The position numbers and the translations under genes were made by a program. DNA of 64,000 nt, from assembly GCA_050014075.1 (NCBI GenBank), contig JBEKEA010000003.1, positions 22,638 to 86,637 on the forward strand. The letters run 5' to 3'. The DNA comes from Sedimentisphaerales bacterium (GTDB lineage Bacteria; Planctomycetota; Phycisphaerae; Sedimentisphaerales; UBA12454). Under the pieces are notes generated by a model. The model saw nothing but the letters and a program-made list of their open reading frames with translations, was not told the origin of the DNA and did no database searches. Shown here piece by piece: positions 13,491 through 64,000 of the stretch (position 1 is the stretch's first letter; the number at the start of each line of letters is the position of its first letter).

Positions 13491-14471
13491 TCAGACAGAC
13501 AATCCCTCAGGTAATTGTTTGGCCACATTTTGAGCTATTTGTACGACTTTTTCCCGCAGACTGGCAGGTGCAAGAACCTGTACCTGGTCGCCGTAGCTTA
13601 GAATCCACCATATTATTTCTTTCAGTCCATCAACGCGGAATTCCATGATTGCCGAACCATCATCCTGAAAGTTTACTGTCTGCGTATTGTGCCATTGGAC
13701 ATCGCAAACACTTTGAGCAGCTTGCGGCAGGAATCTGAGCTTAACATTATAAAGTACCCCTTCCGGCACCATTGACCACGCACGGCCGATATGCTCGGCT
13801 AAATCGAACTTCTTATCCTCAACGAAACATTTATCCAGAATGCGGCATTCTTTGATATGATTAAGTTTTAAAAGGCAGATTTCACTGCCGGATTCTTTTT
13901 TGGCAAGTACATACCATGCATAGTTATTATACATCAGATGATATGGACATATATTAGTTTCCATATCTTCCTGCCCATCTGATAAAGAATAACAAATAGC
14001 TGCAATTCGTTTGTCCAGAATAGCATCCAATAATTGTGTAAATTTCTGGTCAAGCAAATCTAAATTTTCCTGAGGGCCGGGCTTTATGGAAATCTTTTCA
14101 AGGGCGGTATTGCAAAATCGTTTTGTCTTCTCAGGCAAACCACTTTCTATTTTAAGTGCTGCCATAATTGCTGAATTTTTGAATGGAAAATGAATATGAT
14201 TTTTTACTTTATGTGCCAGTAAGAGCAAACTTAACGCCTCATAATTATTCAGGCTCGGCGATGAAAGGAAAAATTTCGGATCTATCCTGTAACCGCGGCT
14301 CTTAGGGTCAAAACTGCACGGCACCCCTACTTTCCTCAGTTCACTTAAATCCCTGAAAACCATTCTTTTGCTAATGCTCAATATTTCAGTCAGATTCTCA
14401 ACCCCATAGCTCTGCCCTGATTGTAACGCCGTAAGGAGCTGAATCATCCTGCTAACTCTGCTGGTTTTCAT
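13491..14471 (-). CDS. HTH + WYL domain transcriptional regulator (YafY/BrxR-like architecture)
   Basis: 326-aa ORF. The N-terminal RVSRMIQLLTALQSGQSYGVENLTEILSISKRMVFRDLSELRKVGVP is a typical HTH_11/DeoR-like N-terminus of WYL regulators. The central segment YAWYVLAKKESGSEICLLKLNHI is WYL-like. Confidence 0.75.
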   Translation of the reverse strand: MKTSRVSRMIQLLTALQSGQSYGVENLTEILSISKRMVFRDLSELRKVGVPCSFDPKSRGYRIDPKFFLSSPSLNNYEALSLLLLAHKVKNHIHFPFKNSAIMAALKIESGLPEKTKRFCNTALEKISIKPGPQENLDLLDQKFTQLLDAILDKRIAAICYSLSDGQEDMETNICPYHLMYNNYAWYVLAKKESGSEICLLKLNHIKECRILDKCFVEDKKFDLAEHIGRAWSMVPEGVLYNVKLRFLPQAAQSVCDVQWHNTQTVNFQDDGSAIMEFRVDGLKEIIWWILSYGDQVQVLAPASLREKVVQIAQNVAKQLPEGLSV

Positions 14472-22286: not shown

Positions 22287-22445
22287 TTTTATTCCTGATT
22301 TCATTATCTGAAGTGCTAAACAAATGACGGACCAAAATTATATCTCTGCTTCTTTTAAAACTCAACCTAATTTATCCAAATACCAACGACCAAATACCAT
22401 ATACCAAAAACTACTTCGTGTCTTAGTGCCGGCGCCTGCCCTGCT

Positions 22446-42147: not shown

Positions 42148-43596
42148 CTATTCTTTGCTCTTATGCAGCATACCATCGGTCAGGAACTTTTTGGAAAAAG
42201 ATAACACGCCATTTGCAAACTTGATTAAATCAAACGGCGACTTTATATCTTTAATCTTTGAACAGATTATCTTCGGTCTCAAGTAAAATTTTCTGTGAGC
42301 CAGCTTTCTATAAGCAATCAACTCTTCTTGCGTAAAACCTTCAGGTATAAAAGCACCGACACAATAGCCCCCCATACTATCCCAACTTTCCTTGAACTGG
42401 CCATATTTTTCTGCAATCCCATAAAATGGCGAGCCGGGGTAGGGTGTAAAAAATGTAAGTCCGAAATCCTGTATATCCAACTTTAACATAAAATTTATAG
42501 TCTGCATAATGGTTTCTTTTGTTTCCGTCGGGTGACCCAATATAAAAAACCCCTTAACCTTTATTCCCACCTCTTTAGCCAGAGTTACTGCTTTTTCAAC
42601 CTGCTCTAAGGTAATCCCTTTCTTTATAAAGTCCAATATCTCCTGAGAACCGGATTCTATACCAAAGGCAATCTGCCAAAATCCGGCCCTTTTTAGCTTA
42701 ACCATTAATTCTCTGTCAATGTTATTTACCCTCGCATCACAAGAAAACGTCAAATCCCATTTTCGCTTAATCAACTCATCACAAATTATATGAGTTCTTT
42801 TCTTAAGGCTTAGAAATGAATCATCGTTTATCTGGATATCTCGTATTCCATATTTATTATACAAAATACCAATCATCTCCAGCACATATTCCGTATCAAA
42901 TGCCCGAACACGCTCGCCTGTTACACTCTTATCGCAAAAAATACATTTACCATAACACCCACGGCTCGTTATTATATGATTAGAGGGCAATCTGCCGGTG
43001 CTCATATAATTCGGCCTATAATGCTTAGAGATGTCCGGTAACAAATGCCACGCAGGAAAAGGCAAGGTGTTAAGGTCGGCAATATATTCCCGCGGCTCTG
43101 TAAATACGATTCTTTCGCCATTCCTATATATTATTCCTTTGACATTATTCAAGTCCCGGCTTTTATCCAGTGCTTCGAGCAGTTCCAGAATAGTTACCTC
43201 GCCTTCTTTAACCACACCAATATCAAAAGACTTAAATACTTCCATTGTTTTAACAGGCGCACCGCTTACATGTGCTCCTCCGATAATAATAGGTGGATCA
43301 TACTCAGCTTTTAACCGGTTTGCCACTTTGGCAGCAAAATTAATTGTCGGTGTTGTAGCTGTAATACCTACGTAACGAGGTTTATACTTTATTGTTTCAT
43401 TGCAACATTGTTCTACATCCATCCCCAAAGCTTTAGAATCAATATATTTAACGCTGTAGCCTTGTTTTGCAATTACAGCCGCTATACTAAGCAAGCCTAA
43501 ATGGGGCAACAAGGCGGTTTTACATAAACCGGCCGTGTTTTTCTGCTTATATAATACATCCGGCGGGTCTATAAGTACGATATCAGTTCCACTCAT
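42148..43596 (-). CDS. B12-binding-domain radical SAM enzyme
   Basis: 482-aa ORF. N-terminal B12-binding-like domain (YVGITATTP...IIIGGAHVS) and radical SAM cluster SRGCYGKCIFC. Confidence 0.85.
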   Translation of the reverse strand: MSGTDIVLIDPPDVLYKQKNTAGLCKTALLPHLGLLSIAAVIAKQGYSVKYIDSKALGMDVEQCCNETIKYKPRYVGITATTPTINFAAKVANRLKAEYDPPIIIGGAHVSGAPVKTMEVFKSFDIGVVKEGEVTILELLEALDKSRDLNNVKGIIYRNGERIVFTEPREYIADLNTLPFPAWHLLPDISKHYRPNYMSTGRLPSNHIITSRGCYGKCIFCDKSVTGERVRAFDTEYVLEMIGILYNKYGIRDIQINDDSFLSLKKRTHIICDELIKRKWDLTFSCDARVNNIDRELMVKLKRAGFWQIAFGIESGSQEILDFIKKGITLEQVEKAVTLAKEVGIKVKGFFILGHPTETKETIMQTINFMLKLDIQDFGLTFFTPYPGSPFYGIAEKYGQFKESWDSMGGYCVGAFIPEGFTQEELIAYRKLAHRKFYLRPKIICSKIKDIKSPFDLIKFANGVLSFSKKFLTDGMLHKSKE

Positions 43597-43707: not shown

Positions 43708-44634
43708 CTATGCCTTTTGTGCCTTTGGGACCAACAGTCGCCCTTGCGGTATATAAAATATATGAGCATTATGATTACACTCATTCGGTATCCCTGGCAG
43801 TTCCATATCCCCTTTGTTCTCCAGATTTTTGAGGTTTCTATAATAATGATTCCAGCTATTCAATCGATCGCCATTTATTTTATCCGCCATTCCGAGTTGC
43901 GCATAAAGAAAAGCGGCATTCATATCACTTGGTAAATATGATGAACCTACATTTTGCCAACTATATTTATCGACCTCACCTCGGAAGAACTCAGAACGAT
44001 CCGTGCCTTTTTCCCTTATTACTTCAGCCGCCCTAATAAATTTCTCATCATTTAGCAATATTGCCCCGCCTTCTCCGCATTGATAATTTTTTGATTCATG
44101 AAAGCTGTAACATCCTATGTCTCCTATAGTTCCCAACATTTTTTTCTTATAGGTAGCCTTAAGACTTTGTGCAGCATCTTCCACAACAAAAAGATTATAT
44201 TTTTTCTTTATGGCCATTATGACATCCATTTCACATCCAACCCCTGCATAATGAACCGGAATTATGGCTTTTGTTTTTGGAGTAATAGCCTGCTCGATAA
44301 GATTCTCATTTATATTCATGGTGTCCGGGCGTATATCTATAAACACTATCTTGGCGCCTCTTAATGCAAAAGCATTTGCAGTCGACGAAAAAGTATATGA
44401 AGGCATAATCACTTCATCCCCTTGACGGATATCTATCAAAAGCGCTGCCATCTCAAGAGCATGGGTGCATGATGTTGTCAAAAAGGCTTTTTTGGTCTTG
44501 GTATGTCCTTCCAGCCATAAGTTGCATCTTTTAGTAAAATTATGATCACCGGACAATTCGCCGCTTGATATAACTTCTTTTATATACCTTGCTGCATTAA
44601 CCGGAATTACAGGTTTATTAAAAGGTATTGCCAT
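43708..44634 (-). CDS. WecE/DegT-type sugar aminotransferase, apparently C-terminally truncated
   Basis: Start placed at Met16 (AAGGA RBS). MAIPFNKP...TSCTHALEMAALL...MPSYTFSSTANAF...VEDAAQS...SFHESKNYQCGEGG...NAHIFYI closely follows WecE-like enzymes. The frame then ends about 60-70 aa earlier than typical family members. Confidence 0.65.
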   Translation of the reverse strand: MAIPFNKPVIPVNAARYIKEVISSGELSGDHNFTKRCNLWLEGHTKTKKAFLTTSCTHALEMAALLIDIRQGDEVIMPSYTFSSTANAFALRGAKIVFIDIRPDTMNINENLIEQAITPKTKAIIPVHYAGVGCEMDVIMAIKKKYNLFVVEDAAQSLKATYKKKMLGTIGDIGCYSFHESKNYQCGEGGAILLNDEKFIRAAEVIREKGTDRSEFFRGEVDKYSWQNVGSSYLPSDMNAAFLYAQLGMADKINGDRLNSWNHYYRNLKNLENKGDMELPGIPNECNHNAHIFYIPQGRLLVPKAQKA

Positions 44635-44665
44635 CTTATTTTCCTTTGCCTGTACACGATAGCTG

Positions 44666-45385
44666 TCAAGAGATCTCAATAGCCACCTCTTTGTAAAATT
44701 TCGTCATCGCTAATACTTTATACTTCTTTGCAAAAGAAGATGTATAATCAAGAAAGGCACTGAATTCGTGGTTTACAGAGAAAAATTCATCAAAAATGAT
44801 TATGGTTTGAGGTTCGATCAAATCGTTCAGAGACGTTAAAACAAACAATGTTGCTGTATAAAGATCAGCATCAAGATGTATTATCAAACGATCTGCCTTT
44901 TTCTTAAATGTAGCCAAAAACTCCGGCAAAGACTCTTGAAAATACCCTTTTATAAAACAAACCCTTTTGTCATCAATATCCGGAGTTTTTCCGTTCGTTG
45001 AAAACGAACCTACCGGCAATGATTTTAAAAATGTATATTTGTATGTTTCAGGAAGACCTTCAAACGAGTCAAACCCAAAGAACCTCGAGTCGTTATTAGT
45101 ATTAATCCCCGCTCATTGCTTTATTGAATCACCCTTATAAACACCAAATTCCAAATAATCAATACAACCCTTATTTATCACTTCATTATTCAAATATTTA
45201 TACAATTCATATCTGTCTTTAAATAATTTAACCGGTTTATCCTTTTTTAGAAACTGCCCAAATTTGATGAGACCATTAATTTCATCCAAGAAATAAGAGT
45301 GAGTTAATCCTAATCGTGAAACTATTCCAACAAGTATTGTAAAAAGTTTTCTTAAAATTATATTATTCTTAAATTCAGTTTTCAC
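44666..45385 (-). pseudogene. TylF/MycF-like class I SAM methyltransferase interrupted by one in-frame TGA
   Basis: ORFs 45113..45385 and 44666..45019 are in the same frame. Translating through the TGA at 45113..45115 gives ...[49 protein letters not shown]...IHLDADLYTATLFVL...IIIFDEF, one continuous methyltransferase. Confidence 0.75.
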
Positions 45386-45430: not shown

Positions 45431-46942
45431 TTATGCAAGATTTTTTATATTCAATATACGCCGAACGAGCGATTTTTCTTCCTCATCCAAAAAAAACAGG
45501 AAATATAATAAACATACCGCGATATAAGTAGCTCCCATAATAAAAATAGTTAAGAAAATATTACTAACATCAAAAATGTTGACAACAGCCACGGCAAGCA
45601 AAAGAACAATAAAATAATATAACAGATTTGGAGCTATAGATTTCCTCCAGTAGTCTGAAAAGGACAATTGTAACCTCTTCAATATCGACCTTATTAAAAA
45701 GCAGGTTGTAATTATCATTGGAACAGTAGTACCGATTGCTACACCCACTATTCCAAGATATCTAATCAGAACTATGCTCAAAATAAGGTTTGAAACCGCA
45801 TTTATTATATTTGGATACAAAAACACATCTGTTTGGCCCTTGCCCATAATAACCATCTGCAACATAAGGAGCGTCCCGTTAAAAAACCACCATAAAAGCA
45901 ATACTTCCAAAGTCGGCACTGCTAATAAAAAATCCGTTCCAAGCCAGTTCACTATAAATTGCTTCGAGTAAACAAATGTAATTAATACCATTGGAATAAA
46001 TAAAGCTGTTTCCAGCTTGGTGTATTTAAATAAATAGCTCTTTTGTTTTTCATATTCTTCTTTGCCCTGCAATTCTGAAAAGGCCGCTATAAATGGTGCG
46101 CCTAATAGCCCATTAACCGAACAAATAGCCTCTTGAATTCTGGAAGCAGCATAATAAACCGTTACGCCGCCGGCAGAGATATATATTCCAATCAAAAAAT
46201 TATCTGTTTGGAAAATAAATATGCCACACAACAGCCCGATAAATATATAGGAACTAAATTTCATAATAAATCGGAATGTTTCCTTGTCAAAGTAGAATAT
46301 GCTTATTTTTATATGACTAAATTCTTTCCTCAGAATAAAAATATATGGTATCTGATACAAAATCAGAAAAACCTGAGATATTAGTACATAGATAACAAAA
46401 GAACTTGTAAACCTAAATACTAAATATACTAAAATCAGACGAGTGATATTGGATAAAATATCAACCTTATTGACTATATCAAAACGGTTCAGTCCGCAAA
46501 TTGCATTATAAAAAGGTATAAAGGGCCATCTGAAAAACGCAGTCAATGCACTGATATAAATCAGTTGTTTACCTTGTATAATATAGTCAGGATTAACATT
46601 GAATATTTTGTGATAAACAAATGATAGAATTAACAGCAAAAATGCGATAACCACTCCTATTGCCGTATAAAAAGACAGAGAGGTATTAAATACCTTTTCA
46701 AGTTTGTCATATTTTTTACCGGCACTAAATTCGGAAACATATTTCATTACTGCCGAACCTACCCCTATGTCCAGAATACCCAGCCATCCGGAAAACGTAA
46801 GCACAATCACGCTAATCCCATACAGCTCCTTCTCTACCTTAGACATAAGATAAGGGAAGATGGCAAGATTAGCAGAGACTGCAATTATTTTGCCTAACGT
46901 ATTATAGGCTATTGATCTGCTGGTTTTAAGTGTGAGTGACAT
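45431..46942 (-). CDS. wzx: Wzx-type oligosaccharide flippase (MOP/polysaccharide biosynthesis protein family)
   Basis: 503-aa ORF with ~12-14 TM helices and the N-terminus typical of Wzx flippases (NTLGKIIAVSANLAIFPYLM). Confidence 0.8.
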   Translation of the reverse strand: MSLTLKTSRSIAYNTLGKIIAVSANLAIFPYLMSKVEKELYGISVIVLTFSGWLGILDIGVGSAVMKYVSEFSAGKKYDKLEKVFNTSLSFYTAIGVVIAFLLLILSFVYHKIFNVNPDYIIQGKQLIYISALTAFFRWPFIPFYNAICGLNRFDIVNKVDILSNITRLILVYLVFRFTSSFVIYVLISQVFLILYQIPYIFILRKEFSHIKISIFYFDKETFRFIMKFSSYIFIGLLCGIFIFQTDNFLIGIYISAGGVTVYYAASRIQEAICSVNGLLGAPFIAAFSELQGKEEYEKQKSYLFKYTKLETALFIPMVLITFVYSKQFIVNWLGTDFLLAVPTLEVLLLWWFFNGTLLMLQMVIMGKGQTDVFLYPNIINAVSNLILSIVLIRYLGIVGVAIGTTVPMIITTCFLIRSILKRLQLSFSDYWRKSIAPNLLYYFIVLLLAVAVVNIFDVSNIFLTIFIMGATYIAVCLLYFLFFLDEEEKSLVRRILNIKNLA

Positions 46943-47002
46943 TATAACAATTCCAAACTGGAAATAAATGGAATCAGTTTTACAAAATGCAGGCGGTCTT
47001 TT

Positions 47003-48121
47003 TCAATTCGGCTTTATAGAGCGAATTGTATCAATTATATAATGAAGCTCATCTTTAGTTAAATCAATCCATAACGGCAGACTTAACACCTCATTTGCTA
47101 TTCTTTCAGTTATAGGAAAAGCTCCTTTTGTTAGTTTCATATCTTCATAAGCTTTTTGGAGATGCGGAGGGATAGGGTAATGAATAAGCGTCGATATGCC
47201 GGCATTACTTAACTCAAGTTGAATTCTATCTCTGTTTAGACTTCGGATGACAAAAAGATGCCACACGGGTTCTGCAAAATCAGGAACTAACGGAAGTACC
47301 AGTCCTGTATCTTTAAGCTCTTCAGTATAAATCGAAGCGATCTTCTGCCGCTCCAGATTCCATTTGTCCAAATAATCAAGTTTTACTTTTAAAATAGCCG
47401 CCTGTATCTCATCCAGTCTTGTATTAAAACCTTTATATATATTATAGTATTTTTGGGTAGAACCGTAGTTTCTCAGGCTCCTTATACGTTCCACCAATTC
47501 GGGGTCATTAGTGGTAACACAGCCGCCATCTCCAAGAGCTCCAAGGTTTTTTGATGGATAAAAACTGAAACCTGCAGCATCACCCAAACTTCCTACTTTC
47601 CTGTTTTTATATACCGCTCCATGCGCCTGTGCAGCATCTTCTATAACCTTTAGATTATATCTCGAAGCAATAGATATAATCGGGTCCATATCTACAGGCT
47701 GGCCATATAGGTGAACACAAAGTATAGCTTTAGTTTTAGAAGTAATCGCCTTTTCTATTAATGCCGGATTTATATTGTATGTCCGCTCGTCAGGCTCAAC
47801 AAATACCGGTGTTGCGCCGGCATAATTTACAGCTAAAACTGTTGCAATGTATGTATTGGCGGGAACAATTACTTCATCACCATTGCCGATATTATAACCT
47901 CGCAAAATCAAATGAAGGGCATCCAGGCAATTGCCCACCCCTACACAATGTCTGACATTGCAATATTTCGCAAATTGGTTTTCGAATAATTTAACCTCTT
48001 CGCCAAGAATATACCATTCAGAATCTATCACTTTGTTGATAGCCTTTTGAATCTGATGGCGCACTTGATCGTGTTGTCTTTTTAGATTAAGAAATGGTAT
48101 ATTTTTTACAGAGGTTGTCAT
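47003..48121 (-). CDS. DegT/DnrJ/EryC1/StrS family NDP-sugar aminotransferase
   Basis: 372-aa [42 protein letters not shown] (PLP Lys) and the [12 protein letters not shown] motif. Confidence 0.9.
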
Positions 48122-48138
48122 AATATGATTACCGTTTT

Positions 48139-49212
48139 TTAATGTTTTATTATCTTCAGTTCAGTGGCAGCTTCCAAACATGCTGTTACTGTTATCCCGC
48201 TATTTATGACACAATCATTTCCAATCTTAATTTTTGGAACAAAGCAACAATTCGTACCTATTATCGTTCTGTCTCCGATAACAACAGAACCTGATGTGGA
48301 AACAGATGGTCCCAATAAACACGAATCGCCAATGACATTATGGTGTTCGACAATACACCCTGCAGCAATCCAACAATTATTTCCTATGAGAGCAAAGTGC
48401 CCAACGTAGGTATTTGCAGCAATGAAATTACCCCTGCCCATTTTAACATTTCCCTCAATAACAGCTTTGGGGTGAATTATATTAATAAAATTAAAATTAC
48501 TGCTGTATCTCTGATAAAATGAATGACGAAAACCCATATCAGAAGAAATTGAAACCGCTATATTGAAAAAAGGATTCTTGCTGTAAACGGTTTCAAGATC
48601 ACTGATAGCCCCTAACACCTTATAACCGCAAACAGAATCTACTTTTCCATAAAGAACTGAATCAAGAAAACCAAGAACGTTATATTTATAATGATCTTTA
48701 AGAATTTGTGAAATAAACTCACCTCCTCTACCGGCTCCAACAATTACAAGATTATTATCTTCCGCGGGGGTAATAGATATTTTTCTCGAACTTTCTATAT
48801 GCTTTATAACATCTTTTTCTTTTATTATCTTACCTGCCCAGATATCTGCTATATTCAAGCCTGCTTCATCAATAAGTTTTTGGGCCTTTTTTGTAGCTCG
48901 CGTAATGCCACGTTGAGATTCTTCACTGTTTATAATTTTGCCATTGGACGAAAATTTCGGCACAAACTCTTTAGATTCTGCAACCATGGCAACAACTGCC
49001 TGGCACTTAACCTTATCTCCTTTCTTAACATTTTTATTAGTAAATATGTATCCGTTTTGCTCAGATTCAATTTCATAGGTAGATTTAGATGTTTCCAGAA
49101 CACATACTACATCGCCCTTCTTAATATACTGGCCATCTTCAACACACCATTCTATAAATGCAGCAAATTCGGAATTCACATCTAAACGAGGCACAATTAT
49201 TTTGTTTAACAT
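48139..49212 (-). CDS. E2-like fusion: lipoyl-attachment domain + peripheral-subunit-binding-like segment + NeuD/PglD-type hexapeptide sugar acyltransferase
   Basis: 357-aa [21 protein letters not shown] is a lipoyl-Lys hairpin (compare ETDKA). [22 protein letters not shown]...KEKDVIKHI is PSBD-like. [17 protein letters not shown] is followed by left-handed beta-helix repeats ([44 protein letters not shown]). The start overlaps the E1beta stop (ATGTTAA). Confidence 0.7.
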
Positions 49213-50228
49213 CTATATATCCTCTTAATTTTGTTTTTTACGTCTTCTTTGCTCGGCAAAACTAAATTCTCCAGATATTTCGCGCTCGGTATCGGCAAAT
49301 CTTTCGATGCTATTCTAAGTACGGGAGATTTCAAACAGCCAAAATATTTTTCCTGAACCACTGATGCAACTTCCGCCCCCCACCCGCCAGTTATCGTTCC
49401 TTCCTCCACTATTATTAATCGACCCGTCTTTAACAAAGATTCCTCTAATACATCTGCATCAAAAGGCTTAATAAGAGAAGGAACTACTATTTCAACAAAT
49501 ATTTCTTCTTCAATCAGCACTTCAAGAGCCGCTTGCTCTGCCAAGGTTACCATACCTCCGTAAGTCAGCACAGTAACATCTGGATCCTTAAAATTATTTG
49601 TCGAAAGAAGAATAGTTGGGTATAAATCCTTGTCGGTATATCGTCTTATCGAAAACTCATCAACAAAACCATTTTTTCCCTCCCTTAATTCTTCAGAATA
49701 AAGGCTTTTGTTTTCAATAAAGAGTACAGGCCCCTTATCTTTGGCTGCTGCAGATTCAAGAAGTTCTCCGACATTATGGTAATAGCTTAATGCTACTATC
49801 TTCAGAAACGGAACTCCTAAAAATAATTTCTCCAGGGACTGACTATGTGTTGGTCCATATCCTCGCCCTCCTCCCATAGGCGTTCTAATAACCAAAGAAA
49901 ATTCCACCTGGTTGTTATACATCCATTTATATTTACTTATGTGATTAACAATCTGATCCATCGAAAGAGTTATGAAATCCCCAAACATAATTTCAACTAT
50001 AGGAATCATTCCCCTCATTGCCAAACCTGAGGCAATACCAACAATAGCTGCCTCACTAATTGGTGTACAATGAACCTGCGAAGGGTATTTCGTGGAAAGC
50101 CCTTTGGTAACTTTAAAGGCCCCGCCATAAGGATCTGAAATGTCCTCGCCTAAAATATGTACGCACTTGTTTGAGCTTAATAAGCGATCCAGTGCAAAAT
50201 TTAATTCGTTGGCAATGGTTTTTTTCAT
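49206..50228 (-). CDS. 2-oxoacid dehydrogenase E1 component beta subunit (transketolase-like Pyr + C-terminal domains)
   Basis: 340-aa ORF. ILGEDISDPYGGAFKVTKGL, TPISEAAIVGIASGLAMRG, DQIVNH, GPTHSQS and PVLFIENKSLY follow the E1beta consensus. Confidence 0.85.
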   Translation of the reverse strand: MKKTIANELNFALDRLLSSNKCVHILGEDISDPYGGAFKVTKGLSTKYPSQVHCTPISEAAIVGIASGLAMRGMIPIVEIMFGDFITLSMDQIVNHISKYKWMYNNQVEFSLVIRTPMGGGRGYGPTHSQSLEKLFLGVPFLKIVALSYYHNVGELLESAAAKDKGPVLFIENKSLYSEELREGKNGFVDEFSIRRYTDKDLYPTILLSTNNFKDPDVTVLTYGGMVTLAEQAALEVLIEEEIFVEIVVPSLIKPFDADVLEESLLKTGRLIIVEEGTITGGWGAEVASVVQEKYFGCLKSPVLRIASKDLPIPSAKYLENLVLPSKEDVKNKIKRIYRC

Positions 50229-50229
50229 T

Positions 50230-51171
50230 CTAAATCATTATACTAAGGTCTTGTTTCGTGGCATATTCAACAGCTTTAGATATACGATTGCTTACATCAG
50301 TATCTAAAGCTGTTCTCTCGGCAGCATCAAGCAGTTTACCGCACAACTTTAAAGGGTCGAGTTCCTTCCTTTTTTCTATTTCTTCTACAGACCTGTAATC
50401 ATCGCTTTTACTATGTGGGCAAAAACGATAAGTGTCTATCTGCAGGAAGAAAGGATGGATATTTTTTCTGACATAATTTACTGCATACTCTGCTATTTCA
50501 TAAACTTGAAAGACATCCGTCGTTGCAATTTGAGTCGCCTCTATTCCAAAGGCTTGAGCTCTCGCCAACATACTGCCTGCAACCGCATCTTTGTAGTATG
50601 TACTTTGTGCGTATTCGTTGTTTTCCAATACAAACAGGATAGGCACCTGCCATAAAGATGCGATATTCATAGATTCGTATAAAACTCCCTGACCAAGAGT
50701 TCCGTCTCCAATATAAACAATGATTATACTGCCTGAATTCTTAATCTTTTCCGCATAGGCCATTCCTGTGGCACATGGAACAATACCTCCTTGTACGCCA
50801 TTAGAATAAAAATTACCTCTACAAAGGTGCTGGCTCCCTCCCCTACCGCCGCATACACCATTTTTCCTTCCCATAAGCTCACATAACAGCCCTTCAACAT
50901 CATCAGTATAAGTAAGGTAGTGGCCATGACATCTATGACTGCTGAATACGACATCATTCTTTGATATGTTTGCAAGAACGCCTAAGGCGTCCGCTTCTTG
51001 CCCGATATAAGCATGGGTGGTGCCATAGATTAAATCTTTGGAGAAAAGCGATAATACCTCTTCTTCAAATCGTCTGATTAAAAGCATCCTGTAGAAAAAA
51101 TACTCTGCTTTCTGAATGCGGCTCAGTTTCTTAAATTCTGCGGTATCTATTATTTCCACTAACTTTTCCAA
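50230..51171 (-). CDS. 2-oxoacid dehydrogenase E1 component alpha subunit (TPP-binding)
   Basis: 313-aa ORF. GTTHAYIGQEA, HRCHGH, GGSQH and the TPP motif IGDGTLGQGVLYESMNIASLWQVPILFVLENNEYA. Confidence 0.85.
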   Translation of the reverse strand: MEKLVEIIDTAEFKKLSRIQKAEYFFYRMLLIRRFEEEVLSLFSKDLIYGTTHAYIGQEADALGVLANISKNDVVFSSHRCHGHYLTYTDDVEGLLCELMGRKNGVCGGRGGSQHLCRGNFYSNGVQGGIVPCATGMAYAEKIKNSGSIIIVYIGDGTLGQGVLYESMNIASLWQVPILFVLENNEYAQSTYYKDAVAGSMLARAQAFGIEATQIATTDVFQVYEIAEYAVNYVRKNIHPFFLQIDTYRFCPHSKSDDYRSVEEIEKRKELDPLKLCGKLLDAAERTALDTDVSNRISKAVEYATKQDLSIMI

Positions 51172-52148
51172 TAAAACTGTTTATATTTACGATAATATTT
51201 AATCGTTCTTGCAAGTCCTTCTTCTGTAGAGATGCCGGGCTCCCAATTTGTAAACACTTTAATCTTGGAAATATCAGAATAGAAATCTCCCGGTTCTTGA
51301 GCCTTCCTCTCTGCAGAAAAGGGAGCAAATTCCCAGTTTCCGGAACCTGCAACTTCAATTATTTTTTCTGCTAACTGTTTGAAACTTATAGGTTTATCAA
51401 TTCCAACATTAAAAATCTCACCATATGCTCTTTCGCAGACAGCACATCGCAAGATTGCATCTACGCAATCATCCACATAAAGAACATCTCGCAGCAGAGA
51501 GCCGTCACCAAAAACTTTTATAGCTTGAGCATCAATTGCTAATCTGATAAACCAATTTACAACACCGTAATGATGATGAAGCATTTGTGCTCTTGGACCA
51601 TAAATATTGGTCAATCTCAGCATAACCGACCTCACACCATGGATATCATTATAGACTTTTAATATCTTTTCTGCCGTCAAATTCGCAATTTCATGAATAC
51701 CCTTCGGATTTGTTGGTGTGTCTTCGCTCACAGGCAATTTGACACAGGCTCCATATACACCTCTGGTGCCGGCATATATTATCACTGCATCTTTGTTAAA
51801 CTTGCGACACGCTTCAGCCAAAATAGCTGTCCCCTTGATATTTATATCTATATCAGGAAAAGGGTCTGAAAGACTTAACACATGAGAAACCTGTCCGGCA
51901 AGATGAAAAACATAATCTTTCCCTCTTATGATATGATTCATTACACTTTCACTGTTTATATCACCAAAATTTATGTGAATCCTATCCTTAATGGATTCAA
52001 CATTAAAAATATTGCCTCCATGATTTGCCAGCATATTATCAATCACTGTAACGTTCGCCCCTTCATCAACCAACTTGATAGCTAAATTACTGCCAATAAA
52101 CCCCAGACCGCCTGTGATTAAAACATTCTTATTCTTAAACCTGTTCAA
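51159..52148 (-). CDS. extended-SDR nucleotide-sugar epimerase/dehydratase-like protein with non-canonical active-site segment
   Basis: 329-aa ORF. VLITGGLGFIGSNL Rossmann motif and GTRGVYG. Where Y-x3-K is expected, the sequence reads NPKGIHEIANLTAEK. Confidence 0.7.
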   Translation of the reverse strand: MNRFKNKNVLITGGLGFIGSNLAIKLVDEGANVTVIDNMLANHGGNIFNVESIKDRIHINFGDINSESVMNHIIRGKDYVFHLAGQVSHVLSLSDPFPDIDINIKGTAILAEACRKFNKDAVIIYAGTRGVYGACVKLPVSEDTPTNPKGIHEIANLTAEKILKVYNDIHGVRSVMLRLTNIYGPRAQMLHHHYGVVNWFIRLAIDAQAIKVFGDGSLLRDVLYVDDCVDAILRCAVCERAYGEIFNVGIDKPISFKQLAEKIIEVAGSGNWEFAPFSAERKAQEPGDFYSDISKIKVFTNWEPGISTEEGLARTIKYYRKYKQFYWKS

Positions 52149-52180
52149 TTCTTATTTCTCCCTTAAAAACATTAAGACCG

Positions 52181-53212
52181 TTATAAAATATTGGAATGTT
52201 TCATATTATTAAGACGATTAAACGCTTCATTTATTAATTCCGTCTTGCAGTATTTTGGGCATTTCTTTAAGTTTAACTTGGATAACTTCTTTTCCATCCT
52301 GTCAAACCTAAAAATGTCCTCAAGATTTTCATTTGTAAAATTTCCCAAAATATAATCTTTATCACCCAAAAACTCACAACATGTGTATACATTGCCATCA
52401 GCACCAAAAACCGCTATAAAATGGGGCGAAATACATCTATCGTAATTTTTACCATATCCTGAACACAACCTAAATCTCTCTCGCCTCACAAGAACCTTAA
52501 ATTTCTCATTGGAAAGCTTTTCTATCTCATCAATAGATTTATCAATTTCTACAACCTCATTGATTTTATTGTTTATGTTGATAGCAGGACGTATTTCTAC
52601 AAAATCCACACTCAAGGTTTTCAGCCTTTTCACCATAGAGATAGTCTCTTTTCTGTTCTCGGCAACCTGCAGTAATTGTACGCCGATAAGACACTCACTC
52701 TTAACTTTCGTTTTACCTAAAGACTCAATTTTGGAAAGCACTCTCTCAAACTCTTTTATATCTACACCATGTAATTTAGAATATATCTCCGCGACACCAG
52801 CATCCAAACTGATTCTGATATATTTAGAAATTGGCTTTAAGCGGTTTATGCTGTCCTCATCCAACAAAGCGCCATTGGTGATTAATCCAACATCTATCCC
52901 AAGCCTGTGAGCTTTTTCCATTGCTTCAACAGTAAATTTATTCGTAAGAGGTTCTCCTCCCCCGGTAAAATTTATCCCCCTCACACCTATAGCCTTTAAA
53001 TCAGTTGGCAATCTCAACAAAATATCCTTGTCCAAAATTTCCTTATGTTCCTCCAAAAAACCAGAGTAAACACACCATATGCATTTATGGTTGCAAAAAT
53101 TACTGGGCGAAAGATCCACCGAAACCGGATAGGGAGATTTCCCTGATTGATATCTGGCGATCTTGTCTGCGTGACAAAATATTTTCATAGAACTGAACTG
53201 ATTATCATTCAT
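52181..53212 (-). CDS. radical SAM enzyme (no B12 domain) with C-terminal Cys-rich auxiliary-cluster-like region
   Basis: 343-aa ORF. SPSNFCNHKCIWC (C-x3-C-x2-C), FTGGGEPL and C-terminal cysteines (CSGYGKNYDRC...YTCCEF...KKCPKYC). Confidence 0.8.
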   Translation of the reverse strand: MNDNQFSSMKIFCHADKIARYQSGKSPYPVSVDLSPSNFCNHKCIWCVYSGFLEEHKEILDKDILLRLPTDLKAIGVRGINFTGGGEPLTNKFTVEAMEKAHRLGIDVGLITNGALLDEDSINRLKPISKYIRISLDAGVAEIYSKLHGVDIKEFERVLSKIESLGKTKVKSECLIGVQLLQVAENRKETISMVKRLKTLSVDFVEIRPAININNKINEVVEIDKSIDEIEKLSNEKFKVLVRRERFRLCSGYGKNYDRCISPHFIAVFGADGNVYTCCEFLGDKDYILGNFTNENLEDIFRFDRMEKKLSKLNLKKCPKYCKTELINEAFNRLNNMKHSNIL

Positions 53213-53234: not shown

Positions 53235-54551
53235 TCATGAACTAATCGCTAATAAATTTCTTTTTGCGATTGTATGTTTTTTGACAATCCTAATCCATGC
53301 TATCGCCATGCCGCAAATAACCCAAAAATCATATCTAAGATATGATGCCATACCTTGAATAAAACTGATACACATAATAGAAGTCAGACAAAATAATATA
53401 TTTCGTTCCCAATTGCACCCTATTTTATTCCTGATTCTCAGGGACATCGTTAATAATGTGATTATTATAGATACTACAAATATAAAATACATCACAAATG
53501 TAATTATCCCATTTTCTGCAAACATGTTCAAAAATTGATTATGCGTCCCTTCATCAACAAACATATTCAGATTATATCCTCCGACACCCCAAAAAAAATG
53601 CTGCATTCCTACTTCAAAAGATTTACTCAAAATATGAAACCGCTCGCCAAACAAGGCAATTGAAAGGTCGCCGCCTCTACCGCTCAGTTTCAGCAGCAAG
53701 TTATTTAATGTCGTAAATCTCTCGAGATGAGAGTGAAAGTATTTATCTGTAATAAAATAAGTAATCAAGCCAATACTCAATATGTATACCAGAAATTTGG
53801 AAAATCTAAACTTCAGCATAGTATATACAACAACCCCAATAACAAGACCCGCAAAACCACTTCTTGAAAAAGTCATAAGAACACAGTAAATATCCAGCAT
53901 GCCGGCGCCAATTAAAAAAACATTCCATTTGCTGTTTTTCTGCAGGAGGGAAATGTTAATTATAAACATAACAGCAAAAATATATCCCAAGGTATTAGCA
54001 TTTATACCAAAAACAGTCAGCCTGTAGGTGACCGGTTTGCCTGCCTGCCAAGTTTTCAGATAAGCCGCTATCTCAGAAATATTCGAGAACGACAAGATGA
54101 GCACTGCGAAAACAGTCCCCACCAGGGAAAACACTACCAACAATGATAACACATCCTCTTTGGTCTTCAATCGCCAAAACACTAATACGCACAGAAAATA
54201 AAAAAACAGATAGTTCCTTAAATATAAAAACCCTAACATAACATCATAAGCATTAAGCGCTGACATCAATATCGGCACCAACATTAATAATAGGACAACA
54301 ATGTTCCGATTACACAATTCACTAAATTGTCGGAGTTTTACTCCCCTTATTATATAAAGATACACCAGAACAGCGATAATTGCATTCGTACTTATTATGT
54401 GATAGAATGAAATACCAGCGTTCTTCATATACTCAGCCCCAGTATTAGGAAGCTCCAAAAAAATACTGGCAAAAATGATGTATAATATATAATTAATGAT
54501 ATTATGTTTTTTAATTATTAGGATGCTTTTCAAAACTTTCTTAACCCACAA
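53235..54551 (-). CDS. O-antigen polymerase/ligase family (Wzy-like) membrane protein
   Basis: 438-aa polytopic ORF (~10-12 TM) with a Wzy_C-like segment (TFSRSGFAGLVIGVVVY) and a larger loop before the last helices. Confidence 0.65.
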   Translation of the reverse strand: MWVKKVLKSILIIKKHNIINYILYIIFASIFLELPNTGAEYMKNAGISFYHIISTNAIIAVLVYLYIIRGVKLRQFSELCNRNIVVLLLMLVPILMSALNAYDVMLGFLYLRNYLFFYFLCVLVFWRLKTKEDVLSLLVVFSLVGTVFAVLILSFSNISEIAAYLKTWQAGKPVTYRLTVFGINANTLGYIFAVMFIINISLLQKNSKWNVFLIGAGMLDIYCVLMTFSRSGFAGLVIGVVVYTMLKFRFSKFLVYILSIGLITYFITDKYFHSHLERFTTLNNLLLKLSGRGGDLSIALFGERFHILSKSFEVGMQHFFWGVGGYNLNMFVDEGTHNQFLNMFAENGIITFVMYFIFVVSIIITLLTMSLRIRNKIGCNWERNILFCLTSIMCISFIQGMASYLRYDFWVICGMAIAWIRIVKKHTIAKRNLLAISS

Positions 54552-57365: not shown

Positions 57366-58739
57366 TTAACATGACTGCTTTTTCAATTTCGCAAAAAGTC
57401 TATTTATCATAAACCATATCTGCAAACGTCTGCTCCACGCATATTTTGCCTTCTTGATGGGATTTCGAAAACAAAATAAAAAATATCCAATAATTTGAAT
57501 TATCTCTAAAGATATATGGGATACTTTTTTAAACTCTAACGCATGCCCATATTGTTTACTGTAAAAACTCCAATCATTGTGAGTTAGTGTATACCCACCT
57601 TCACCTTTTAACGCCATTTCTCTAACCAATGTCCCCGGAAAAGGAATCATTATGCCGAAAGAGACATTATCCGCCCCTATATAAAAAGCCAGTAGAATAG
57701 TTCTTATAGCGCTGAAAAAAGTTTCATTCGGATGTCCAAGAATAAAATAACTCCCCGTAGTTATGCCTAAATCTTTGCATGTTTGTATGATATTTTTTGC
57801 TTCCTTATTGTCGAAATCCTTACTTTGGCTTTTCCTTATTTTTCGATTGGCCGATTCAATGCCGAAACCTATACTAGTTAAACCGGAATCTCTCATTATT
57901 TTAAGTAACTCCGGATTTCTACTGATAACATCAATTCTTGATTCTGCCCCCCATACGCCTCCCCACTTTTTCATTATGTTACATATGTCCAATGTCCGTT
58001 TATAATCTAATGCAAAAGTTTCATCATTGAATTCGATGCTTTTTGTTTTATCGGGAAGGGTCCCCATGAATTCCTCAAATTTTTTGGGAGACATATTTCT
58101 GACTTTATTCCCATAAGGACGACTGCAAAAATGACAGGGGTAGGGACATCCTCTTGTTGTTTGAATACGATAATTGGATGCCGGTTTTAACAAGTGGTAA
58201 GCCGGTAAAGGCAGATTATCCAGATTTGTTTCTACGGGTCTTGCCGGATTGACAACAATGTTTCCGTTTAATCTCCAGGCAAGTCCTTTAACCTTATCTA
58301 AATTATTATTTCCGTTTTCACGGATTTCCTTAATTAACTCCGCAAGGGTATCTTCCCCTTCTCCAAAAACAAGCAAATCAAAAACATCAAACTCTTCGAG
58401 TGTTTGTTTTGGTAAAAACGTAGTGTGCACCCCTCCGATAACAGAAAATTCTATATTAAAATTTGCTTTAATCTCCTTCATAATATGCGACGCCAACATA
58501 ATCTCCTGAGTAAACGCGGTTATCCCAACCACGTCCACCTCAGAACCAAAGTGTTTTTTTATTTCAGTTATAACTTGAGCAAGCTTAAGACCGTCATACT
58601 TCATGTCCAAAAGAAGGATGTCAGTCATAGATTCGATTGCTCCCGCTAACTGGCATATCGTAAGATTGGGAGTATCAGTCCTGTCATAGGCTTCTTCGTG
58701 TGAATAATCCGGAGATGGATTAATCAATACAACTTTCAT
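57366..58739 (-). CDS. B12-binding-domain radical SAM enzyme
   Basis: 457-aa ORF. N-terminal B12-binding-like domain (VVGITAFTQ...VIGGVHTT) and radical SAM cluster TRGCPYPCHFC. Confidence 0.85.
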   Translation of the reverse strand: MKVVLINPSPDYSHEEAYDRTDTPNLTICQLAGAIESMTDILLLDMKYDGLKLAQVITEIKKHFGSEVDVVGITAFTQEIMLASHIMKEIKANFNIEFSVIGGVHTTFLPKQTLEEFDVFDLLVFGEGEDTLAELIKEIRENGNNNLDKVKGLAWRLNGNIVVNPARPVETNLDNLPLPAYHLLKPASNYRIQTTRGCPYPCHFCSRPYGNKVRNMSPKKFEEFMGTLPDKTKSIEFNDETFALDYKRTLDICNIMKKWGGVWGAESRIDVISRNPELLKIMRDSGLTSIGFGIESANRKIRKSQSKDFDNKEAKNIIQTCKDLGITTGSYFILGHPNETFFSAIRTILLAFYIGADNVSFGIMIPFPGTLVREMALKGEGGYTLTHNDWSFYSKQYGHALEFKKVSHISLEIIQIIGYFLFCFRNPIKKAKYAWSRRLQIWFMINRLFAKLKKQSC

Positions 58740-61513: not shown

Positions 61514-62329
61514 TTAAAGGAGAGTTTTAACAAACTCCAAATTCTTTTTAGCTGCCTCTATAGGATTATCGCACATTGTTGTTTCCAATATATAACTGCC
61601 CTTGTATCTTGCTTTTTTAAGGGACTTAAAGCATTCCGGAAAATCAACAAGCCCCGTTCCCAACATAACATTATGGCCTTCTTTATCTCTATCCTTAATA
61701 TGCACACCGCCAATCCATTTTGAAAGCCTGCGGATTTCCTCCGCTGGATCATGTCCTAAATACGCACTATTGCCAACATCATAATAAACCTTTATGTTCG
61801 GATGACCGATTTCTTCCAAAAACTCCTGTGTTTCCTGCCATTGTAATGTGGCTTCAAAACAAAGATTTATCTCTTGTCTTCTCAATAATTCACCGACCAA
61901 ACTTATGACATCAATTATATCGTCCTTATCTTTTCTGCTGCTGACGCTGGATTCTTCCAAAAGTGGGATTAATATAGTATTACATTGGATAACTCTGCTT
62001 GCATCGATTAACTTTTCAAGTATAAAAATATTGTCCTCTTTTGCCTGCGGGCTTCTTTGAAAAAAACCATACCTCTTGAAAAAATCCGCACAAACCGATG
62101 ACACACTAATTTTTGAAGACTCCGATAGTTCGACAATTCTCTCCTGTCCGCTTTGGCACATTAACGGATTATTATAATAAGCATCTATATCAAAAAGAAG
62201 TTCGATCGCAGAAAATCCGCTCTTTTTGCAAACCTCAAATTCTTCTTCCCATGTTTCAGAAGGGAAAACCTGATATTTTTTTATATCTTTCGGCAATAAC
62301 CGGCCCTGTATAATACCAATTTTATTCAT
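61514..62329 (-). CDS. xylose-isomerase-like TIM-barrel sugar-phosphate isomerase/epimerase
   Basis: 271-aa ORF with the layout typical of AP_endonuc_2/xylose isomerase-like TIM barrels (FSAIELLFD..., NLCFEA..., HIKDRD...). Confidence 0.6.
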   Translation of the reverse strand: MNKIGIIQGRLLPKDIKKYQVFPSETWEEEFEVCKKSGFSAIELLFDIDAYYNNPLMCQSGQERIVELSESSKISVSSVCADFFKRYGFFQRSPQAKEDNIFILEKLIDASRVIQCNTILIPLLEESSVSSRKDKDDIIDVISLVGELLRRQEINLCFEATLQWQETQEFLEEIGHPNIKVYYDVGNSAYLGHDPAEEIRRLSKWIGGVHIKDRDKEGHNVMLGTGLVDFPECFKSLKKARYKGSYILETTMCDNPIEAAKKNLEFVKTLL

Positions 62330-63079: not shown

Positions 63080-64000
63080 TTATTTTTTACCCTGATTAAG
63101 TACCATGTTATGGCATACCTTCATTCTGGCCGTATGAAAAATATTCGATGGCAAAAAGAAATTATAAATAAACTTTATTAAAACTTTTAGTTTGATAGCT
63201 TTTCGTCCCACCATGTCCTTGTCTTCCCTATGAGTAATAACCTTCCAGGCAACATTATCAATATGGTGGTGGAATTTGCTATTTGGAAGCTTAATCAACA
63301 GACAAATAAGCGGTTTTAAAAAAGTGAAATAAGTTCCAAATGTAAATAAATTAAGAAGGTTATTAATTTTCTCAACCTCATGATTATTATTAAACTTCAG
63401 TATACTTATCCAATGGAAGTTGTCCGGAATATTATCTTCAAACTCCCCCCTCTTAAGATACCCCATCTCAATGGCTTTTTCAGTAAGCTCCATACCCGGA
63501 TAAGGTTGAAACTTACTGGCTGTAGCAACTTCAGGTTTAGACTTTATATTCAACTCAAATGTTTCCATCGCGGTCTTGAAAGTTTCACCTGGCAAAAGAA
63601 GTATGTTTTGTATCCTCATGCCGAGCCCATAATCATGAACGATTCTGGCCCCTTTCAGCATCTGGATATTTGTCACCGGCCGTCTTAATAATTCTCTCCG
63701 CCTTTGTTCATTTCCAGTCTCTATAGCTGTTTCAATAATACGACATCCTGCATCTGCCATCAGAGAAATCCTTTTCTCTGCCATCATGGTTGGATGCAGG
63801 TGTGCGTCCCATGGTAATCCGACCTCTTTTTTGTACATATCACAAAAAGATCGCAACCAGCTAAGGTTGACACCAAAGGTATCATCCTGAAATAATATAT
63901 GCTCTACCTCATTTTCAGTTAAGGAAAGCCGAAACTTAATCATTTCTATACAATATGCCGGGGAAGGAGCACGAACAACCTTTCCAAGCCCCTTGTATAT
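63080..64000 (-). CDS. radical SAM family enzyme, 5'-partial (continues beyond window edge)
   Basis: The reading frame is open from 63943 to the window end. The visible part (FQDDTFGVN...RIIETAIETGNEQRRRELLRRP...ILLLPGET) matches the core downstream of the Fe-S motif in B12-binding-type radical SAM enzymes. The cluster motif itself is outside the window. Confidence 0.65.
   Translation of the reverse strand: MYKGLGKVVRAPSPAYCIEMIKFRLSLTENEVEHILFQDDTFGVNLSWLRSFCDMYKKEVGLPWDAHLHPTMMAEKRISLMADAGCRIIETAIETGNEQRRRELLRRPVTNIQMLKGARIVHDYGLGMRIQNILLLPGETFKTAMETFELNIKSKPEVATASKFQPYPGMELTEKAIEMGYLKRGEFEDNIPDNFHWISILKFNNNHEVEKINNLLNLFTFGTYFTFLKPLICLLIKLPNSKFHHHIDNVAWKVITHREDKDMVGRKAIKLKVLIKFIYNFFLPSNIFHTARMKVCHNMVLNQGKK

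Follow-up and report, generated by a model that had tools for sequence, protein, structure and literature searches.

Why should a bacterial glycan locus carry the genes of a thiamine pyrophosphate (TPP)-dependent 2-oxoacid dehydrogenase E1, directly followed by a gene for a protein that joins a lipoyl domain to a sugar acyltransferase? This question is raised by a stretch of 64,000 nucleotides from a Sedimentisphaerales bacterium (assembly GCA_050014075.1, contig JBEKEA010000003.1, positions 22,638 to 86,637; below called the window), in which genes for E1alpha, E1beta, a fusion protein of 357 residues and a DegT-family aminotransferase lie together with a gene for a short-chain dehydrogenase/reductase (SDR). 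Based on the analysis described here, we consider it fairly likely that this block encodes a self-contained, 2-oxoacid-dehydrogenase-like machine for the N-acylation of a nucleotide-linked amino sugar. An earlier inspection of the sequence by a model (the initial annotation) had proposed that an E1-loaded lipoyl arm serves the fused transferase, which would act on the DegT product, and this proposal is supported by the comparative genomics tests presented below.

The fusion protein has, judging from its predicted structure, the beads-on-a-string layout of an E2, the acyltransferase component of 2-oxoacid dehydrogenases. Its modules follow each other in the order lipoyl domain, flexible linker, two-helix segment resembling a peripheral-subunit-binding domain (PSBD), second flexible linker, PglD_N Rossmann-like domain and left-handed beta-helix (LbH) acyltransferase. 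The AlphaFold2 (AF2) model, which was based on an alignment of 62 sequences, has a mean predicted local distance difference test (pLDDT) score of 92.8; the lipoyl beta-barrel (residues 1-80) scores 92-98, the Rossmann-like and beta-helix parts 96-99, and the linkers at residues 98-101 and 145-150 below 50. The peptides that the initial annotation had quoted from this protein are present at residues 36, 105 and 131, and profile hidden Markov model (HMM) searches returned, as it had expected, Biotin_lipoyl and NeuD/Hexapep matches and no 2-oxoacid_dh catalytic domain.

That the N-terminus is a lipoyl domain, as had been claimed, follows from its Pfam match (Table 1), from the Foldseek superposition on E2 lipoyl domains of pyruvate dehydrogenase (PDH; template-modelling score TMt 0.72-0.85, root-mean-square deviation (rmsd) about 1.7 A) and from the invariance of the predicted lipoyl-lysine, K43 (codon 49084-49086), which is located within the hairpin VLETSKST. 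The best NCBIfam match of the N-terminus is NF011457, the model for the E2 of acetoin dehydrogenase. It should be noted that the Pfam family covers both lipoyl and biotinyl carriers, and that the N-terminus also has weak NCBIfam matches to biotin carrier models, from which one might argue that it carries biotin. We regard a biotinyl carrier as extremely improbable, given that the hairpin in the family reads E-T/S-S/T-K and has no MKM motif, that no carboxylase or carboxyltransferase genes are present, and that the genetic partners are E1, E3 (dihydrolipoyl dehydrogenase), the lipoate-protein ligase LplA and the lipoyl synthase LipA.

For the next segment, described as a PSBD-like helix pair, Pfam's E3_binding model has no match, and three other results speak for this description. 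In the hhalign comparison with a true E2, the alignment passes from the lipoyl domain through the PSBD of that E2 (probability 97.6%, for the whole alignment of 144 columns); the AF2 model places helices at residues 108-117 and 132-143 (pLDDT 80-91); and within the segment A110 is invariant, with T107, K108, K109 and D134 being invariant or nearly so. The segment is predicted to form a docking site for E1 and/or E3.

The C-terminal half is where the protein departs from classical E2s. It matches PglD_N (PF17836, residues 154-223, 4e-7) and Hexapep (PF00132, 3.9e-15), as well as the NeuD model TIGR03570 (residues 154-344, 1.4e-41), the latter with 142.4 bits, which is below the cutoff of 160.8. 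The catalytic core of E2 (2-oxoacid_dh, PF00198) had no match in the Pfam scan of the fusion, and genuine E2 sequences align to the N-terminus only. Foldseek places the half on PerB (TMt 0.85, rmsd 1.7-2.0 A over about 200 residues), on PglB-ATD (TMt 0.82-0.85) and on PglD (TMt 0.79-0.85), so that the structure prediction reveals a PglD/PerB-type transferase and not a divergent E2 core. H290 (codon 48343-48345) aligns with His141 of PerB, the residue mutated in the structures 4eaa (H141N) and 4eab (H141A). In PglD, the catalytic histidine is His125. The PglD_N domain is kept in all 15 fusion members scanned.

Contrary to the impression left by the initial annotation, the architecture is not rare but common in metagenomes. 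An exhaustive profile search yielded 5822 matches at E <= 1e-30; the figures on architecture rest on the best 150, which are representatives of clusters at 50% identity, and at rank 150 the E value is still 1e-82. On this basis, the fusion family comprises at least 145 clusters at 50% identity, most of whose representatives are full-length proteins of about 345-400 residues, and tandem NeuD repeats account for two of the 150. A word-indexed search had given a family of about 15 members, an estimate that the profile search showed to be due to under-sampling. Two proteins, P0079 (865 residues) and P0160 (638 residues), contain four and three tandem NeuD/PglD-like units, respectively, and no lipoyl domain. 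A set of 166 fusion sequences falls into 106 clusters at 45% identity.

Across this diversity, few residues are fixed. Among 62 diverse members, with about 30% identity, only E40, K43, G54, A110 and H290 are invariant; the hairpin lysine is kept in 145 of the 145 full-length members among the best 150, and H290 is invariant in both the 62-sequence and the 166-sequence set. The joint invariance of the lipoyl lysine and the transferase histidine at such a low level of identity indicates that each half is functional and that the two act in concert. Nearly every cluster comes from uncultured bacteria, and the only names returned by cluster look-ups were those of metagenome-assembled genomes of Sedimentisphaerales and Spirochaetales. 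The fusion was not found in plasmid and phage collections, and a scan of genome contigs with a single fusion protein returned partial NeuD-like matches only. Databases label members 'NeuD family', 'EpsM', 'hypothetical protein' or 'biotin/lipoyl-containing protein' (the latter being the NCBI label of the fusion in the window), with no specific name. No Pfam or NCBIfam model names the lipoyl/PSBD-like/PglD architecture, and full-text literature searches retrieved no description of a lipoyl-PglD fusion; one paper considered as a prior report ('Flashy flagella') was discarded, as its 'lipoylation' refers to fatty acylation.

What, then, would load the arm? The E1 genes of the window encode subunits with PDH-like features that are not those of a housekeeping PDH, because both score below the PDH equivalog cutoffs of NCBIfam (E1alpha, TIGR03182, 264.5 bits against 393.85; E1beta, NF006667, 213.7 bits against 321). 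The TPP motif that had been reported for E1alpha is present, with the spacing GDG-x26-NN instead of x25. The closest solved structure to E1alpha is human PDH E1alpha (1.3e-45), and E1beta matches E1beta entries of the PDB at 1e-40 to 1e-49. Eight fusion-linked E1s that we compared share 31-66% identity among themselves and the motifs HRCHGH, GGSQH and PYGGAFKVTK; the TPP motif and both active-site histidine motifs are kept in all eight. The catalytic-loop histidine of E1alpha (...PHSKSDD) is conserved in eight of eight, and THSQS of E1beta in all fusion-linked E1s. In PDH E1, this E1alpha histidine is associated with lipoyl acylation. An attempt to read off the acyl group from E1 similarity was abandoned without a conclusion, the E1s being nearest to the pyruvate type and yet below the family cutoffs.

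The resemblance of E1alpha to PDH E1alpha, together with the best match of the fusion N-terminus to an acetoin-dehydrogenase E2 model, would also be expected if E1 and the lipoyl protein formed a pyruvate or acetoin dehydrogenase of energy metabolism that merely happens to be sited in a glycan locus. We consider this very improbable in view of the sub-cutoff E1 scores, the lack of a chloramphenicol-acetyltransferase (CAT)-like or other coenzyme A (CoA)-acetyltransferase core, the translational coupling to glycan genes, and the fact that the E1-fusion pair moves together through many glycan loci and gene orders.

The last point is based on nine loci obtained by exact look-up and 43 more from a metagenome scan, which were annotated with our own HMMs. 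The latter include 28 full-length fusion loci, 23 of them with usable upstream sequence. Dedicated E1 genes occur in 29 of 32 fusion loci and lie directly upstream of the fusion in 25 of the 32. In the look-up loci, E1 is directly upstream in eight of nine, encoded either by separate alpha and beta genes or by a single alpha-beta gene (about 650 residues). In the metagenome loci, E1 was found in 21 of 23, and in 17 of these 21 it immediately precedes the fusion; in L026 and L027 the two are some 600 nt apart, in L028 LplA and LipA lie between them, and in L042 E1 is located downstream. The two loci without E1 are short contigs that have an E3 gene directly upstream of the fusion. As a control, E1 was found in none of 14 loci holding only a plain NeuD-like gene.

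A lipoyl toolkit (E3, LplA or LipA) is co-located with the fusion in eight loci. Among the gene orders are LplA, E3, E1b, E1a, fusion (L004 and L034); E1ab, fusion, LplA, E3 (L014); DegT, E1b, E1a, LplA, E3, fusion (L038); DegT, E1a, E1b, LplA, LipA, fusion (L028); and E3, fusion (L041 and L046). Several of these assignments pass NCBIfam equivalog cutoffs: E3 of L004, L034 and L038 (TIGR01350; 414, 418 and 497 against 408.8), LplA of L004 and L014 (TIGR00545; 314 and 288 against 280) and LipA of L028 (TIGR00510; 347 against 310).

These observations bear on another explanation, in which the E1-like pair uses hydroxyethyl-TPP to extend a 4-keto sugar by a two-carbon branch, the transferase is an ordinary N-acetyltransferase that depends on acetyl-CoA, and the lipoyl domain is vestigial or regulatory. 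Such chemistry has a precedent in AviB1/AviB2 and Pau11/Pau12, which build C2-branched sugars in antibiotic pathways without a lipoyl partner (PMC4425429), and the locus does encode keto-sugar-forming enzymes. It would also suit a mini variant found on two independent contigs (L043:5878-7940 and L044:164-2223), in which an E1alpha of 250 residues and an E1beta of 190 residues without Transketolase_C lie beside a NeuD-like protein of 230 residues without lipoyl domain or PSBD. However, the lipoyl lysine is invariant in a family of about 30% identity, the PSBD-like module is retained, the E1alpha histidine associated with lipoyl acylation is conserved, and C-branching needs none of the E3, LplA and LipA genes that accompany the fusion. 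We therefore rate the C-branching explanation as improbable. The joint loss of the PSBD and the E1beta C-terminal domain in the mini variant fits an interaction of the two in the full system.

The initial annotation had asked whether the fusion always sits with both E1 and DegT. The E1 linkage is nearly universal, as described above, but the DegT linkage is not: in six of the nine look-up loci, DegT is at most two genes away from the E1-fusion pair, and it occurs in eight of the 28 full-length metagenome loci. It directly follows the fusion in the window, L004, L007 and L033, and is found just upstream of E1 in L006, L008, L014, L028, L037, L038 and L040. In L040 (592-8275), a TviB/WbpA-like UDP-GlcNAc 6-dehydrogenase, DegT, a fused E1ab, the fusion and a GFO oxidoreductase form a WbpA/WbpB/WbpE-like set, in which the fusion occupies the place of the WbpD-type acetyltransferase. 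This gene content suggests that L040 encodes a 2,3-diamino-uronic-acid pathway in which acylation depends on a lipoyl arm. The same locus encodes two fusion paralogs (4993-6135 and 7211-8275), which flank the GFO oxidoreductase. A radical S-adenosylmethionine (SAM) gene is also found near the fusion in the window, L008, L014 and L043; we rejected it as a conserved partner of the module, since pairwise BLASTP revealed only generic core similarity, the radical SAM protein of L028 being an exception in that it is LipA.

Taken together, the following working scheme can be proposed. E1alpha-beta would use TPP to decarboxylate a small 2-oxoacid or related donor and reductively acylate the lipoyl-lysine K43. 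The PSBD-like helix pair would hold E1 (and, in loci that have it, E3) on the fusion, which is expected to trimerise via its beta-helix as PglD and PerB do and would thus replace the trimer-based E2 core. The flexible linkers would allow the acyl-dihydrolipoyl arm to swing into the PglD-type site, where H290 would deprotonate the amine of the DegT product, a nucleoside diphosphate (NDP)-linked amino sugar, which would then receive the acyl group. The arm would be re-oxidised by dihydrolipoyl dehydrogenase, whose gene belongs to the locus in some relatives and would have to lie elsewhere in the genome here. The net reaction would be 2-oxoacid + NDP-aminosugar + NAD+ -> CO2 + NDP-N-acyl-aminosugar + NADH. 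What the analysis shows is the domain architecture, the conservation of the two catalytic residues, the gene linkage and, as described below, the existence of split forms; that K43 is lipoylated, that the fusion trimerises and docks E1, which way the acyl group flows and which sugar accepts it are inferred.

The DegT protein of the window is predicted from its family to make the amine acceptor, which is probably an NDP-4-amino-4,6-dideoxyhexose or a 4-amino intermediate of the nonulosonic acid pathway of the locus. This assignment is based on three considerations: PerB and VioB, which have the closest transferase folds, use 4-amino-4,6-dideoxy sugars as substrates; the glycan locus also encodes a nucleoside triphosphate (NTP)-transferase, a 4,6-dehydratase, NeuB, a PseF-like cytidylyltransferase and a GFO oxidoreductase; and a relative described below, L063, likewise ties the system to NeuB. 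As for the donor, a dedicated machine for acetyl groups seems redundant given acetyl-CoA, which makes 2-oxobutyrate, hydroxypyruvate or ketose phosphates (as in QncN/L; PMC6335953) attractive candidates. A xylose-isomerase-like TIM-barrel protein (AP_endonuc_2) is encoded in the window (61514-62329, minus strand), in L031 (9136-9993) and in L039 (4422-5261); the copies of the window and L031 share 32% identity (E 2e-51), and the protein has weak matches to L-ribulose-5-phosphate 3-epimerase and hydroxypyruvate isomerase. It might supply a keto-acid or ketose donor, a weak link in that the gene lies 10 kb away in the window and, outside it, recurs in a single other lineage.

Another explanation differs from this scheme in the last step. 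The beta-helix domain might be an E2 surrogate that passes the acyl group from dihydrolipoyl to CoA, which would make the system a dedicated generator of acyl-CoA, to be consumed by the same active site or by further transferases. PerB and PglD, whose fold the domain shares, are CoA-dependent and have crystal structures with CoA, and the conserved histidine could equally deprotonate a thiol. On the other hand, the sugar-nucleotide-binding PglD_N domain is retained throughout the members scanned, the DegT linkage is tight, and many loci have no other acyltransferase to use a CoA ester. Moreover, 162 of 166 fusions lack the GxPAK motif found at the C-terminus of PerB and PglD. The loss of this motif had been considered as proof of CoA independence and, despite a strong statistical association, was downgraded to ambiguous, because some lipoyl-less relatives lack the motif as well and the split transferase of L063 keeps a GVPGK C-terminus typical of CoA users. 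Altogether, we regard transfer to CoA as unlikely, although it deserves to be taken seriously.

Besides these motif data, several other observations weigh against transfer of the acyl group from the lipoyl arm to an amino sugar. L013 and L015, which would also suit a generator of acyl-CoA, are not obviously glycan loci, and no E1 gene lies within 10 kb of the orphan fusion P0014 (L003). E3, LplA, LipA and a canonical E2 were not found in the scan of the window with our own HMMs, in agreement with the initial annotation as regards E3 and E2, nor in the 10 kb past its right edge, so the cycle must depend on genes elsewhere. The expectation of an E3_binding match failed: PF02817 has no match in the fusion and is marginal in two of 15 relatives (best E 0.037), and the PSBD-like call consequently rests on hhalign, the predicted helices and residue conservation. 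An E1 of the pyruvate type would give an acetyl group, which is already available as acetyl-CoA, and the selective advantage would then be unclear. Finally, the SDR that is coupled to E1alpha, which had rightly been called atypical, has HxxxN (GIHEIANLT) in place of the catalytic YxxxK in the alignment to the GalE-like structure 4zrm. Judged by its sequence, this protein lacks the canonical catalytic dyad and may have a non-redox role or perform a different chemistry; it has no counterpart at other fusion loci and no evident place in the scheme.

A different kind of support for lipoyl-to-sugar transfer is provided by relatives in which the halves are separate. A search with the N-terminal profile only identified 38 stand-alone carriers with a median length of 143 residues, which have the lipoyl hairpin and the TKKA...EKDV helices. 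In L063, the gene order is PglD-like transferase, E1a, E1b, stand-alone lipoyl-PSBD carrier, NeuB, flippase, dehydratase and NTP-transferase. This is the same system with its halves unfused, which provides Rosetta-stone support for the functional link between them. The polysaccharide locus L061 (4102-11752), and L062 in the same way, contains E1b, E1a, LplA, E3, a carrier of 142 residues, a FabH-like ketoacyl-acyl-carrier-protein synthase (KAS III), an acyl-carrier-protein (ACP)-like open reading frame (ORF) of 71 residues and an aldo-keto reductase, followed by two Acyl_transf_3 genes (O-acyltransferases). The E1/lipoyl module of L061 and L062 thus appears, from its gene context, to feed a KAS III/ACP branch, which suggests that the unit of E1 and lipoyl carrier feeds different downstream transferases. 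The genes at 45431-53212 of the window contain no ACP according to the Pfam scan. A more far-reaching proposal combines three elements: that lipoyl-to-amine transfer is independent of CoA and takes place in a trimeric core recruiting E1 and E3; that the fusion is the founding member of a class of lipoyl-carrier acyl donors with fused, split and KAS III/ACP-coupled forms; and that the groups transferred are other than acetyl (glycolyl, propionyl or hydroxyacyl). We put this combination forward tentatively, as possible rather than probable.

How does this system relate to those that are known? It shares parts with classical E2s, with PglD/PerB, with QncN/L/M and with AviB1/AviB2, and fails a defining feature of each. 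Like the E2s of the pyruvate, 2-oxoglutarate and branched-chain 2-oxoacid dehydrogenases, the fusion begins with a lipoyl domain whose modifiable lysine tops a beta-hairpin, continues through a flexible linker into a short helical segment predicted to bind partner subunits, and ends in a catalytic domain that should form trimers. Its gene adjoins and is translationally coupled to those of E1alpha/beta, with E3, LplA and LipA near several relatives. Unlike them, it has a PglD/PerB-type beta-helix with a nucleotide-sugar-binding N-domain instead of a CAT-like core, its predicted acceptor is an amino sugar and not CoA, it sits in glycan loci, and its hairpin reads ET(S/T)K where that of E2s is usually ETDK. 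The E2 of AcoC-type acetoin dehydrogenase, to whose model the N-terminus is closest, is a precedent for core replacement, as the catalytic domain attached to its lipoyl domain is not of the CAT type; that catalytic domain, however, is an acetyltransferase of the alpha/beta-hydrolase type that acts on CoA in catabolism, and not a sugar N-acyltransferase.

With PglD, PerB, VioB, PglB-ATD and NeuD, the fusion shares the PglD_N and LbH fold, the conserved catalytic histidine and the DegT partner. It differs from this family by about 150 extra N-terminal residues, which form the lipoyl and PSBD-like modules, by its linkage to E1 at nearly every locus, by scoring below the TIGR03570 cutoff, by the usual lack of GxPAK, and by its predicted donor, which would be acyl-dihydrolipoyl instead of acetyl-CoA. 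The quinocarcin (QncN/L/M) and scleric acid (SclQ1-4) pathways, in which an E1-like enzyme and a lipoyl-acyltransferase make glycolyl-ACP (PMC6335953), are a precedent for lipoyl transfer to an acceptor other than CoA. Here too, an E1-like TPP enzyme would load a lipoyl arm that passes its acyl group to a non-CoA acceptor in a tailoring reaction outside central metabolism, and L061 and L062, in which KAS III and an ACP-like ORF come after a stand-alone carrier, resemble these pathways even more closely than the fusion does. However, QncL and SclQ4 keep a classical E2 acyltransferase domain, their acceptor is an ACP thiol and they belong to a nonribosomal peptide synthetase cluster, whereas the fusion is an LbH enzyme of a glycan locus with a sugar amine as its predicted acceptor. 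AviB1/AviB2 and Pau11/Pau12 are likewise E1alpha/beta-like and encoded in sugar-modification clusters, where they take a C2 unit from pyruvate (PMC4425429); they differ in building a C-C branch on a 4-keto sugar and in lacking a lipoyl protein, E3 and lipoate ligase. This distinction is drawn from gene content and description. The system would be of the 2-oxoacid-dehydrogenase type, a known kind of machinery, and what would be new is the class of its core and its acceptor.

The coordinates of the features are collected in Table 1. The positions, the minus strand and the neighbours given in the initial annotation (radical SAM, SDR, E1alpha, E1beta, DegT and Wzx) were all correct, and so were the junctions. 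The E1beta stop and the fusion start share ATGTTAA, with the ribosome-binding site AAGAGGA upstream, the spacing between the fusion and DegT is 17 nt, and the SDR and E1alpha genes overlap by 13 nt, provided that E1alpha begins at TTG. In the scan with our own HMMs, the whole window contains one E1alpha, one E1beta and one fusion. The flippase assigns the gene block to a Wzx/Wzy-dependent glycan locus. The initial annotation had named four outcomes contrary to its proposal, namely an N-terminus that does not score as a lipoyl domain or lacks the lysine, a divergent E2 core in the C-terminal half, an already characterised family with a different role, and E1 genes serving an unrelated catabolic pathway; none of these was found.

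Table 1. Genes of the locus and segments of the fusion protein (positions in the window)
Feature	Positions	Strand	Evidence
MOP/Wzx-type flippase	45431-46942	minus	Pfam Polysacc_synt, MatE, MurJ
DegT/PseC-family sugar aminotransferase	47003-48121	minus	PF01041, 7e-122
Fusion protein, 357 aa	48139-49212	minus	Pfam, NCBIfam, AF2, Foldseek
Fusion: PglD/PerB-type sugar N-acyltransferase half, aa 154-350	48163-48753	minus	TIGR03570, PF17836, PF00132, Foldseek
Fusion: PSBD-like segment, aa 105-142	48787-48900	minus	hhalign, AF2 helices, conserved residues
Fusion: lipoyl domain, aa 1-80	48973-49212	minus	PF00364 Biotin_lipoyl, residues 14-75, 4.7e-11
E1beta, 340 aa	49206-50228	minus	Transket_pyr, Transketolase_C
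E1alpha, 313 aa with TTG start, TPP-dependent	50230-51171	minus	PF00676, 6e-58
Extended SDR (epimerase/dehydratase fold)	51159-52148	minus	Pfam Epimerase, 1.8e-44
Radical SAM/SPASM protein	52181-53212	minus	Pfam; not LipA (NCBIfam)
Wzy_C match	53235-54551		domain scan

Other genes of the window deserve a brief mention. The glycan locus contains four B12-binding radical SAM genes (34326-35819, 42148-43596, 57366-58739 and 63080-63943, all on the minus strand), and two further ones lie just outside the window (L016); several SAM methyltransferases are encoded as well, and these genes suggest heavy C-methylation or other radical tailoring of sugars. At 43708-45385 (minus strand), a TylF-like methyltransferase is apparently split into ORFs of 90 and 117 residues, beside a DegT-like ORF of 323 residues that spans only positions 8-279 of the 360-position profile, which may reflect gene decay or frameshifts. 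Upstream of the glycan locus, an Eco57I/MmeI-like type IIG restriction-modification fusion of 1116 residues (18954-22304) and a regulator with a WYL/WCX domain (13491-14471) are encoded, both on the minus strand. An ornithine/diaminopimelate decarboxylase-family gene (133-1266, minus) lies near a deoxyhypusine-synthase-like gene (4082-5287, minus); this pair points to polyamine metabolism of the homospermidine type, unrelated to the fusion.

In summary, if the proposed transfer from the lipoyl arm to an amino sugar is true, the E2 family would have a third type of catalytic core, a sugar N-acyltransferase, and the TPP, lipoyl and FAD machinery of central metabolism would have been repurposed many times as a portable cassette for glycan tailoring. 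This would be surprising to specialists of both 2-oxoacid dehydrogenases and glycan biosynthesis, the more so as the system is widespread and unannotated; an annotation rule for the fusion family could be written at once. The system would also offer candidate enzymology for the unusual N-acyl groups with which bacteria decorate amino sugars and nonulosonic acids. The origin of the N-glyceroyl and N-glycolyl groups was described in 2017 as a major challenge for Tannerella forsythia, in a paper that does not mention E1, transketolase or lipoyl genes (PMC5378307); the link to these nonulosonic acids is a motivating analogy only. Furthermore, N-acylated nucleotide sugars could be made biocatalytically from cheap 2-oxoacids by this system, with no need for acyl-CoA.

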